From the sequence record PV682947.1: a DNA stretch of 64,000 nucleotides. One strand, 5' to 3'. A program made the translations under genes and the position numbers. Positions 21,551 through 23,441 of this stretch are shown one piece after another (position 1 is the first letter of the stretch; each line of letters opens with the position of its first letter). The stretch is from Escherichia phage WPEC4. The notes under the pieces are model-generated. The model had not been told where the DNA came from, ran no database searches, and saw nothing but the letters and a program-made list of their open reading frames with translations.

Positions 21551-21955
21551 TTATTGAAGTTTAAGTGAACCACGAAGACGTTTCTCTTGCTGATCACGGA
21601 TATATTGTGGAACCTCGTGAATTGAATCATTACCGTGCCTATTTTCAACAACTAAAGAGATAACTTGATAACCAAACTCTTCAGCAAGAGCTAGATAAGG
21701 TTTAAGTTCTTTCTCTGTGGTTGAAGTATTAGAAACAATAATCTTGTTAAGATTAGATGCCATAGCATCACGAACAATACCCTGACACCATGCGTGTGCT
21801 TTACCTACATTTTCTGGCTTCCAATCGTAAACACCACTCTCTGTGTAATGATATTGATCTGCCTCACAGATAGGCCAATAACCTTCAGAAATAATTTCTG
21901 CTACTGTAGATTTACCAGCACCTGAAACACCACGTAAAATGATAAGTTGTTTCAT
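21551..21955 (-). CDS. P-loop kinase (polynucleotide-kinase-like)
   Basis: Walker A ILRGVSGAGKST at N-terminus; adjacent to ligase-like and phosphoesterase genes. Confidence 0.5.
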   Translation of the reverse strand: MKQLIILRGVSGAGKSTVAEIISEGYWPICEADQYHYTESGVYDWKPENVGKAHAWCQGIVRDAMASNLNKIIVSNTSTTEKELKPYLALAEEFGYQVISLVVENRHGNDSIHEVPQYIRDQQEKRLRGSLKLQ

Positions 21956-22888
21956 TTATCCTCCAAAAAAGTTTTCGATTTTTTCACGTCGCTCTTGCTG
22001 ATTTAAAGCAGCCCATTGAATCTTCGTAAAATTATTTCGAATCCATTCTAACAAAGCGTAATATTCTTCGTCAACCATTTGTTTGGCATTTTTTGGATTA
22101 TCCCAAATCAGATCCCACTTTTTATCTCCACCGCGCATAAGAAACTTCTTAGTAAGATAGTGTGGTGATTTAATTTTTAAAAGTAAGTTGAACGGATAGT
22201 TTGTTTCACGAACTACAAACCCTTCGTGTTTACAATGTTTAGACATTTCAACAACATCTGAAAACTTAACCATTGGATGAACTTCAGGACGCTTAAATTT
22301 GGTGACAGAAGCAATTCCATCAAGAGCACCTTCAGGTAACATAAAACTTGTCCCATCAGGATTTTGAATTCTGGCACCAATTAAGTATGCACCTGGTTCT
22401 TCTTCGACAATATGCGGATCAGAAGGATCACAGATTTCAAAAAGGAAAGTTGCTTTTGCACTCTCTGTCCATTTGATGAAATGTTCTATGTCATCACACT
22501 CTGAAACAATATGATTCTTTGCAATACTTGCAAAATCTGATTCAAGGCTTCCTGTTGTCGATACAATAAGTTGACCTTTATATACACCTACAGAGGCCAT
22601 AAAACCATTTACTTTACGAACCACATCTACAAGTTCATCCGCTGGTAGATCTGTGCCATTCTCAAAACGATTAAAAATCTTAGTGAAAGGCCAAATAACA
22701 ACATTGTCATCAGCATCAACAACGATTCCGCGACATTCTAGAAGACGAGAATCAATGCTCCATAAGTTATCCCAGAAAACTTTGTTCTTATACTTAAGAA
22801 CAGATAGACCAGAATACTCTCCTTCTTTATATGTTTTCTTATGAACTAAACCTTTTTCAACCAAATCGTCGCAATTAAATTTAGCCAC
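21956..22888 (-). CDS. RNA ligase-like nucleotidyltransferase
   Basis: Motif I RKVNGF, motif IV EGFVVRE, motif V LLLKIKSP; no OB domain; about 310 aa. Confidence 0.5.
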   Translation of the reverse strand: MAKFNCDDLVEKGLVHKKTYKEGEYSGLSVLKYKNKVFWDNLWSIDSRLLECRGIVVDADDNVVIWPFTKIFNRFENGTDLPADELVDVVRKVNGFMASVGVYKGQLIVSTTGSLESDFASIAKNHIVSECDDIEHFIKWTESAKATFLFEICDPSDPHIVEEEPGAYLIGARIQNPDGTSFMLPEGALDGIASVTKFKRPEVHPMVKFSDVVEMSKHCKHEGFVVRETNYPFNLLLKIKSPHYLTKKFLMRGGDKKWDLIWDNPKNAKQMVDEEYYALLEWIRNNFTKIQWAALNQQERREKIENFFGG

Positions 22889-22889
22889 A

Positions 22890-23441
22890 TTATTCTCCTT
22901 TGATTATTTTGTGATGGTCTACAGTCACGATATCTCGTTTACTCATCATAGAAATTATCTCATCAAAATGCAAGATTTTTCCGTGTGCATCCCAACCCAC
23001 ATCTAACATTTTACCATAAGCTTCATCAGGGAAAGATCCGTGGGAATGCCCGTGTAGCATGATTGATCCACGACCTTGTTTATTCCAGGAGGCCATAGGG
23101 TAATGGCTTAAGACGAAGAACAGCTTCTGATATTTCACTTCGTCATAATACACCACTTCTCCATACTCTGCAAGCACTTCTTGGTGTTTGCTGTAGTCAT
23201 GGTTCCCAACACAGTAGGTGATATCTCCTTGGAGACGGGAAGCAATTTTACGGGTATCTTCTTCAGTTCCGAAACAGAAGTCGCCCAAATGCCACATCTT
23301 AACACCAGGAGTAGTAGCACATTTGTTCCATGCTTCGATCAAGGCTTCTGTCATGTGGTCCATATCTTCCCACGGACGATATTCAGGAGCAAACTCTCGA
23401 ATACGTTTATGCATAAAATGCAAATCGCTTGTAATAAACAT
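22890..23441 (-). CDS. calcineurin-like metallophosphoesterase
   Basis: DLHFMH, HLGDF, GNHDY, MLHGHSHG motifs. Confidence 0.65.
   Translation of the reverse strand: MFITSDLHFMHKRIREFAPEYRPWEDMDHMTEALIEAWNKCATTPGVKMWHLGDFCFGTEEDTRKIASRLQGDITYCVGNHDYSKHQEVLAEYGEVVYYDEVKYQKLFFVLSHYPMASWNKQGRGSIMLHGHSHGSFPDEAYGKMLDVGWDAHGKILHFDEIISMMSKRDIVTVDHHKIIKGE

Follow-up and report, generated by a model that had tools for sequence, protein, structure and literature searches.

The window analysed here, a 64,000-nucleotide stretch of Escherichia phage WPEC4 (sequence record PV682947.1), carries at 21551-23441 on its minus strand three consecutive genes for a binuclear metallophosphoesterase, an Rnl1-type RNA ligase and a small P-loop kinase. 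We put the chance at about two in three that these proteins carry out heal-and-seal RNA repair, most likely of tRNAs that host anticodon nucleases have cleaved in the anticodon loop. The original prediction, made from the letters of the window, had described a three-gene repair cassette at this place and quoted motifs from each protein; the open reading frames (ORFs) lie exactly where it put them, and every motif is present in the translations. Region 21400-23600 is 99-100% identical to Phapecoctavirus genomes (phAPEC8-like E. coli myoviruses, Stephanstirmvirinae), and 121 phage records match it. An NCBIfam scan of the genes gave no equivalog-level assignment for any of them.

The ligase matches Pfam RNA_lig_T4_1 with an E-value of 3.8e-15, above the curated cut-off. 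A single-sequence search of solved structures returned no match, and a profile of 23 ligase homologues returned T4 Rnl1 as its sole significant match (E 2e-11), over the nucleotidyltransferase domain. The motifs KVNGF, EGFVVR and KIK occupy residues 92-96, 222-227 and 238-240, and the residues K92-V-N-G95, F150-E151, E222-G223 and K238-I-K240 are invariant in sets of 23 and 33 homologues. In the alignment, motifs I, III, IV and V fall on K99, E159, E227/G228 and K240/K242 of T4 Rnl1. Three N-terminal residues specific to Rnl1 (T4 Arg54, Lys75 and Phe77) are represented by R53, K70 and F72, which are invariant or nearly so. When we considered the 12 T4 Rnl1 residues that we take, from published mutagenesis, to be essential, Asp101 and Lys119 among them, ten were found to be identical in register: R54, K75, F77, K99, G102, E159, E227, G228, K240 and K242. 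Because both the profile and the alignment match the T4 Rnl1 motifs and the Rnl1-specific residues, the protein is classed on its sequence as an Rnl1-type RNA ligase of the tRNA-ligase clade and not as a DNA ligase. The original prediction had allowed that it might prove DNA-specific or non-catalytic; what we found is a protein similar to tRNA ligases, with its catalytic residues retained.

The kinase has its Walker A motif (GVSGAGKST) at residues 9-17. As a single sequence it matches only the generic Pfam family AAA_33 (E 2.7e-10, above the curated cut-off), and its matches among PDB entries are insignificant. A 47-member profile of its family aligned over the full length with T4 Pnk (E 3.2e-9), the Clostridium thermocellum Pnkp kinase (E 2.2e-8) and Capnocytophaga Pnkp1 (E 1.1e-7), and polynucleotide kinases outranked every nucleoside or nucleotide kinase aligned full length. 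G14, K15 and D33 are invariant in the 47 homologues, D33 aligning with the catalytic general base Asp35 of T4 Pnk, and the family has a conserved segment of its own, E104-N-R106-H107-G ... H113-x-V-P. These profile matches assign the kinase to the polynucleotide-kinase clade that holds T4 Pnk and the bacterial Pnkp kinase. It may also resemble the eukaryotic N4BP2-type kinases. An exhaustive search showed its family to be a very large one of stand-alone proteins of about 135 residues, with 7,313 cluster representatives at E<=1e-3. Members are also fused to Rnl1-like ligases in both orders (kinase-ligase in P0321, ligase-kinase in P0377), which is strong evidence that both act on the same substrate.

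The third protein scores 25.1 bits against Pfam Metallophos (cut-off 21.5) and bears DLHFMH at residues 6-11, GDF at 53-55 and GNHDY at 79-83. Its binuclear metal ligands (DxH, GD, GNH[DE], H, GH and GHxH) do not vary across 32 homologues, the most distant of them 35% identical. Since the metal site is intact and invariant, the protein is very probably an active enzyme. Its closest similarity is to Aquifex aeolicus aq_1665 (PDB 1XM7), with a C-terminal third that aligns poorly by sequence, and it belongs to the aq_1665/COG4186 clade, not to the lambda-phosphatase/Pnkp clade. Another outcome that the original prediction had contemplated was a protein Ser/Thr phosphatase. The PPP protein-phosphatase signature (GDxHG, GDxVDRG, GNHE) is absent from this protein, which has SDLHF, GDF and GNHD instead, and lambda phosphatase is only a distant fold match. 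The protein is neither a Pnkp-type phosphatase nor a Ser/Thr protein phosphatase.

The association of the three families was examined in 80 viral-metagenome loci and 10 bacterial-assembly loci, fetched with the ligase profile and scanned with profiles of all three families. Linkage was counted in the 62 ligase loci flanked on either side by 3 kb or more, where the ligase is 31-88% identical to the window protein. The kinase is adjacent to or fused with the ligase in 59 of the 62, the phosphoesterase lies within 3 kb of it in 53, and both partners do so in 50. Finding the three families together in most related loci indicates that the arrangement is not due to chance. Over all 90 ligase loci, with M for phosphoesterase, L for ligase and K for kinase, the gene order is M-L-K in 39, K-L-M in 16, L-K-M in three and L-M-K in one; there are also 15 kinase-ligase fusions and one locus with the pair on the opposite strand. 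The rearranged orders show that linkage survives shuffling.

Counts were also made from the other two genes. Around the phosphoesterase (69 loci), both ligase and kinase were present in 24, the kinase only in six and neither in 39. Around the kinase (62 loci), both partners were present in 17, the ligase only in seven, the phosphoesterase only in 17 and neither in 21. Both healing genes thus also occur without an Rnl1-like ligase. In 13 loci of this kind a ligase from another RNA ligase family (PF09414, with an OB domain at its N terminus) stands next to the phosphoesterase-kinase pair, and Pfam confirmed the assignment in two of them. A modular heal-and-seal system would be expected to retain its healing pair in this way when one sealing enzyme replaces another. 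The loci with this Rnl5-like architecture are IMG/VR contigs (L181, L190, L191, L195, L196, L204, L208, L215 and others). Another group of IMG/VR loci (L062-L082) has kinase-ligase fusions of about 420-432 residues and no phosphoesterase of this family within 3 kb. Pfam recognised no substitute 3'-phosphoesterase in such fusion loci, and a conserved protein of 229-236 residues that matches no Pfam family lies just upstream of the fusion in L062-L082.

Relatives were found in bacteria as well. Neisseria flavescens (NZ_LAEJ01000024.1, 2360-11455, on a 357-kb contig; locus L093) has a 492-residue fusion of the kinase with an Rnl1-like ligase after a Ro60/TROVE gene, and a COG4186-type phosphoesterase follows 1.2 kb downstream of the fusion, beside a NUDIX gene. 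RtcR and a Thg1-like tRNA 5'-end repair gene are encoded divergently from this series. RtcR is the sigma-54 activator of RNA-repair operons, and the Neisseria locus appears to be under its control, with an ATP-dependent ligase in the usual place of RtcB/RtcA. PMC7790460 describes RtcR as a damage-responsive regulator. In Campylobacter concisus a kinase-ligase fusion adjoins the phosphoesterase, among housekeeping genes. The families are thus met outside phages too, in a setting recognised for RNA repair.

In the window the three genes abut. The TAA of the phosphoesterase gene is separated by a single T from the GTG of the ligase gene, and the ATG of the kinase gene comes immediately after the ligase TAA, the 3' end of the ligase gene containing a GGAGG. 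Upstream, an ORF for a 118-residue protein overlaps the phosphoesterase gene as TAATG. These junctions are consistent with translational coupling, and no strong terminator-like hairpin was found within the cassette. A promoter scan gave 37 sites against 30.2 +/- 5.8 expected and was uninformative; terminator-like hairpins were above expectation (13 versus 6.1 +/- 2.1). On the minus strand the best promoter-like match lies at 26379-26351, and 17594-17571 forms a clean terminator-like hairpin. As the promoter scan did not exceed expectation, these two sites mark no more than loose limits of a long transcription unit on the minus strand.

Cumulatively, the conserved linkage, the exchange of one ligase for another, the fusions and the Neisseria RNA-repair locus make heal-and-seal repair well supported in silico. 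The proposed mechanism has the following steps: 1) the metallophosphoesterase would strip a cyclic or 3' phosphate to leave a 3'-OH, a cyclic phosphate possibly being opened first by the cREC protein encoded nearby; 2) the small kinase would move a phosphate from a nucleoside triphosphate onto the 5'-OH; and 3) the Rnl1-type ligase, adenylylated on Lys92, would activate the 5'-phosphate and seal the break. The likeliest substrates would be tRNAs whose anticodon loops have been cleaved by anticodon nucleases of the host, in the manner of T4 Pnkp/Rnl1 against PrrC. The original prediction had assigned 3' healing, 5' healing and sealing to three separate polypeptides. This division of labour is borne out, as far as sequence comparison goes, by the type of ligase, the clade and fusions of the kinase, the conserved module and the RtcR/Ro60 locus. 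What the sequences show is the fold and family of each protein, its conserved catalytic residues, the close packing and linkage of the genes and their fusions; the activities, their order, tRNA as substrate and a role in counter-defence are inferred from these.

Several observations weigh against repair of this kind, and some concern departures from the T4 enzymes. Two of the 12 T4 Rnl1 residues considered above are replaced in the ligase, Asp101 by Asn94 and Lys119 by Thr112, and both replacements are invariant in the family. Against NCBIfam TIGR02308, the T4 RnlA equivalog, the ligase scores 24.1 bits where the cut-off is 242. The helical domain at the C terminus of T4 Rnl1 confers tRNA specificity. 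The ligase profile alignment ends at T4 residue 251, and the predicted helical C-terminal region of the phage protein comprises about 68 residues (242-309), about half of the roughly 120 in T4 (255-374). The AlphaFold model of the ligase is confident, with a predicted local distance difference test (pLDDT) score of 91.9. By these comparisons the ligase is a distinct short subfamily and not an equivalog of T4 RnlA. In the kinase, two arginines of T4 Pnk, Arg38, which contacts the acceptor phosphate, and Arg126 of the lid, are unmatched in register, being replaced by His36 and Asp110; Arg106, which aligns with T4 Arg122, might substitute for them.

The remaining points against RNA repair concern the phosphoesterase, the setting of the genes and the survey. 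By fold, the phosphoesterase has nucleases and lipid or nucleotide phosphodiesterases among its neighbours, and its family often stands without ligase or kinase, so that genomic context does not fix its substrate; nor can the substrate be read from homology. The cassette is embedded in a block of nucleic-acid metabolism genes, near a DNA ligase. Our literature search found no experimental paper on the COG4186 clade, the phAPEC8 RNA ligase, a phage Rnl1 with a metallophosphoesterase or phage N4BP2-type kinases. Finally, the surveyed loci are phylogenetically related, and the linkage counts given above do not represent independent events.

Among other explanations, the one that survives best, unlikely as it is, differs from the preferred reading in its chemistry. 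The cREC protein would open the 2',3'-cyclic phosphate to a 2'-phosphate and 3'-OH, the kinase would phosphorylate the 5' end, and the ligase would require the 2'-phosphate, as in fungal and plant Trl1; the phosphoesterase would come later, either as a 2'-phosphatase or to clear ADP-ribose cyclic phosphate. Such a scheme is related to the NAD-linked one proposed for rV5-type phages. Trl1 relies on a 2H cyclic phosphodiesterase and on the 2'-phosphate, with Tpt1 acting after it. In the ORFs that we scanned around the cassette there was no 2H protein, Tpt1/KptA or sirtuin, and no RtcB or Hen1 either; SIR2 had no match among the ORFs scanned, which were the larger ones at 8-25 kb. The ligase profile reaches T4 Rnl1 only and has no detectable sequence similarity to Trl1. 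In addition, a cREC with its triad occurs within 3 kb of the ligase in only 10 of the 62 loci, all from the enterobacterial phage group. Set against the figure for the phosphoesterase, this count marks the phosphoesterase as the general partner, as expected of the primary 3'-healing enzyme in the heal-and-seal reading.

Two further explanations are less probable still, and about equally so. The genes might serve DNA ends, with the kinase and phosphoesterase cleaning 5'-OH/3'-phosphate nicks for the neighbouring ATP-dependent DNA ligase, or with the phosphoesterase acting as a single-strand nuclease like ligase-associated MPE/PdeM; the surrounding metabolic block and the nucleases among its fold neighbours can be read this way, and the RNA-ligase identity of the adjoining enzyme and its fusions with the kinase point to RNA. 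The other explanation retains the heal-and-seal chemistry and gives it a housekeeping role, in maturing or repairing the phage's own tRNAs or transcripts or in RNA circularisation. The phage has its own array of at least 11 tRNAs 4.6 kb away, the module is conserved over many lineages irrespective of host, and no host nuclease target has been identified, all of which would suit this role. Characterised phage systems that combine Rnl1 with end healing, however, serve counter-defence, as in T4 against PrrC. Moreover, ARAGORN flagged no intron-containing tRNA in the array, and the bacterial relatives stand under RtcR, which PMC7790460 presents as damage-responsive.

Very improbable is a mere juxtaposition of unrelated genes, namely a Ser/Thr phosphatase or nucleotide phosphodiesterase, a nucleotide kinase and a ligase for tail-fibre attachment like T4 gp63: database labels such as 'RNA ligase and tail fiber protein attachment catalyst', 'ATPase' and 'phosphoesterase' suggest it and the phosphoesterase family is frequently found alone, yet the lack of a PPP signature, with lambda phosphatase a distant fold match, speaks against the first role, the linkage, fusions and tight junctions favour a functional unit, and the tail-fibre label is inherited from T4, the invariant catalytic residues of the ligase arguing against a purely structural role.

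Table 1. Positions of the cassette genes and of other features in the window
Feature	Coordinates	Strand	Remarks
Binuclear metallophosphoesterase, 183 aa, aq_1665/COG4186 clade	22890-23441	-	Proposed 3'-end healing: 2',3'-cyclic phosphodiesterase and/or 3'-phosphatase
Rnl1-clade ATP-dependent RNA ligase, 310 aa	21956-22888	-	K92 predicted adenylylation site; short helical C-terminal region; proposed sealing
Stand-alone P-loop polynucleotide 5'-kinase-like protein, 134 aa	21551-21955	-	AAA_33; proposed 5'-OH healing
cREC (cyclic-phosphate processing receiver-like) protein, 118 aa	23957-24313	-	PF20274 cREC_REC, 51.6 bits (cut-off 27), E 1.6e-13
118-aa ORF	23441-23797	-	Stop overlaps phosphoesterase start; PHROG 839, label unknown function
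MazG-like gene	18563-19288		PF01503
Phage tRNA array	28068-29993	+	10 tRNAs by ARAGORN; context, not part of operon
197-aa protein	47010-47603	+	Pol-beta-like GGAVRD...DLD motif; PHROG label 'nucleotidyltransferase'

Around the cassette (Table 1), local annotation drew on WPEC1, which is 100% identical, and on the annotated phage Schickermooser, both collinear with the window in the cassette region only and used for that purpose alone. The cREC gene, two ORFs upstream of the phosphoesterase gene, had gone unmentioned in the original prediction. Its family is predicted to open cyclic phosphates, as a prediction only (PMC7824862, PMC9503650), and the protein here is a lineage-specific accessory that possibly opens the 2',3'-cyclic phosphate. 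The ORF overlapping the start of the phosphoesterase gene has no Pfam or NCBIfam match. It was tried and rejected as a conserved fourth component, being kept in close relatives only; the 118-residue ORFs beside the phosphoesterase in loci L003 and L005 have no detectable homology to it, and its membership of the cassette is uncertain. Directly downstream of the kinase, 21014-21541 (minus strand) encodes a 108-residue coiled-coil protein (PHROG 'hol-like chemotaxis') and a 63-residue protein with CxC...CxxC, both conserved in the enterobacterial phage group only. The genes downstream of the cassette comprise three small ORFs, the phage DNA ligase, the MazG-like pyrophosphatase, an RdgC-like protein, exonucleases, ThyX and ribonucleotide reductase.

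The original prediction had linked the cassette to a tRNA array and to a CCA-adding-like enzyme at 47010. The array is real. Besides the tRNAs called by ARAGORN, Rfam found two candidates that ARAGORN missed: one at 28765-28849 (plus strand; 39 bits, above the gathering score), annotated as tRNA-Tyr in WPEC1, and a weaker one at 28454-28540 (plus strand) that matches the tRNA-Sec model with 37.4 bits, below the gathering score of 47. These tRNAs are possible beneficiaries of repair or an alternative counter-measure. The CCA-adding-like assignment was not confirmed. The protein at 47010-47603 has no Pfam match at E<=0.01, including none to the PolyA_pol head domain, and its best PDB matches (E 0.3) are unrelated proteins, with no solved CCA-adding enzyme among them. 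Its gene lies 24 kb from the cassette, between the DNA polymerase and a single-stranded DNA-binding protein (SSB)-like gene. As it lacks a Pfam or PDB relative, it was not counted as support for RNA repair. The 1110-residue DNA polymerase itself (43049-46381, plus strand) reads in its middle, judging from the translation, like a protein with an inserted intein, having a cysteine-initiated block and an endonuclease-like stretch.

How the cassette compares with known repair systems was considered next. With T4 Pnkp (PseT) and Rnl1 (gp63), which act against PrrC, it has in common the Rnl1 ligase family, the nucleotidyltransferase motifs, the Rnl1-specific N-terminal residues and a kinase of the polynucleotide-kinase clade with its catalytic Asp; both sets are phage-encoded, and the same three chemical steps would be shared. 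The T4 system differs in that 3' healing is performed by a DxDxT (HAD) phosphatase domain fused to Pnk, the counterpart here being a binuclear metallophosphoesterase. The cassette kinase is a stand-alone protein without the two T4 arginines in register, and the ligase is 64 residues shorter than T4 Rnl1, with a reduced C-terminal domain and outside the RnlA equivalog. In T4, pseT and gene 63 lie apart, whereas the three genes of the cassette are contiguous.

Bacterial Pnkp/Hen1 and Pnkp1-Rnl-Hen1 (Clostridium thermocellum, Capnocytophaga gingivalis) share with the cassette the set of kinase, metallophosphoesterase and ATP-dependent RNA ligase, and in Capnocytophaga the ligase is a separate polypeptide, as it is here. 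In contrast, bacterial Pnkp is a single polypeptide with a kinase, a lambda-phosphatase-like phosphoesterase and an Rnl4-type ligase, and has Hen1 as a partner. The Pnkp-likeness claimed for the cassette thus stands as regards the set of three activities and fails on the single polypeptide, the Pnkp-clade phosphoesterase and Hen1; the label is one of analogy, not of membership, and the cassette belongs to neither the T4 nor the Pnkp/Hen1 architecture. As for aq_1665, it is a structural-genomics protein with no assigned function and, in contrast to the cassette phosphoesterase, no known RNA-repair context.

The gene neighbourhood had been anticipated in the literature. Linkage of cREC with RNA ligase was reported in Viruses 2021 (PMC7824862), and Iyer, Burroughs, Anantharaman and Aravind (Viruses 2022, PMC9503650) predicted, for rV5/Mydo-type phages, a neighbourhood of sirtuin with a T4-like ligase, cREC, kinase, MazG and sometimes a calcineurin-like phosphoesterase. 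The window has essentially this neighbourhood: ligase, cREC, kinase, MazG-like gene and phosphoesterase are all present. It departs from the prediction in lacking a sirtuin among the scanned ORFs, and in our survey the phosphoesterase, 'occasional' in that account, is the usual partner, with cREC and MazG lineage-specific. We counted the agreement of this independent prediction in favour of the heal-and-seal reading. The GenBank record of Schickermooser, moreover, labels the three orthologues 'putative phosphoesterase', 'putative RNA ligase' and 'putative polynucleotide kinase'. Given this annotation and the prediction of 2022, the cassette is a correct rediscovery and not a new idea. In Vibrio phage Chloris (L002, 7677-10707) and a 148-kb contig (L005, 1331-4415), genes for a phosphoribosyl pyrophosphate (PRPP) synthetase-like protein, nicotinate phosphoribosyltransferase (NAPRTase, of NAD salvage) and Macro proteins lie near the repair module, which echoes the proposed link of RNA repair with NAD/ADP-ribose metabolism.

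What our analysis adds is, first, that the phosphoesterase is a regular partner and a member of the function-less aq_1665/COG4186 clade and, second, that the phosphoesterase-kinase pair is modular with respect to ligase family, with the same set recurring in the Neisseria RtcR/Ro60 locus. A broader proposal, tentative and on balance doubtful, is that the COG4186 phosphoesterase and the kinase of about 135 residues constitute a very widespread two-protein unit for RNA end healing, which plugs into at least two unrelated phage RNA ligase families and into bacterial RtcR loci. In its boldest version, the cREC-bearing enterobacterial variant would run a 2'-phosphate-dependent, Trl1-like ligation in which the phosphoesterase would be a Tpt1-independent 2'-phosphatase. 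To our knowledge, neither viruses nor bacteria have been found to use a pathway of this kind.

Heal-and-seal repair is an established concept, predicted for these phages beforehand, and unless the enzymes prove biochemically unusual the advance is incremental. tRNA-cutting nucleases (PrrC, RloC and HEPN effectors, including Cas13) form a major arm of bacterial immunity, and the success of therapeutic or environmental phages in escaping them depends on repair modules such as this one. As phAPEC8- and rV5-like coliphages are used in phage therapy collections, knowing their complete heal-and-seal kit helps to predict host range. A testable function is thereby offered for two large unstudied families, the COG4186 metallophosphoesterases and the minimal polynucleotide kinase. 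If the proposal of a widespread healing unit is true, it would give the COG4186 clade its first biochemical function, that of an RNA 2',3'-cyclic phosphodiesterase/3'-phosphatase.

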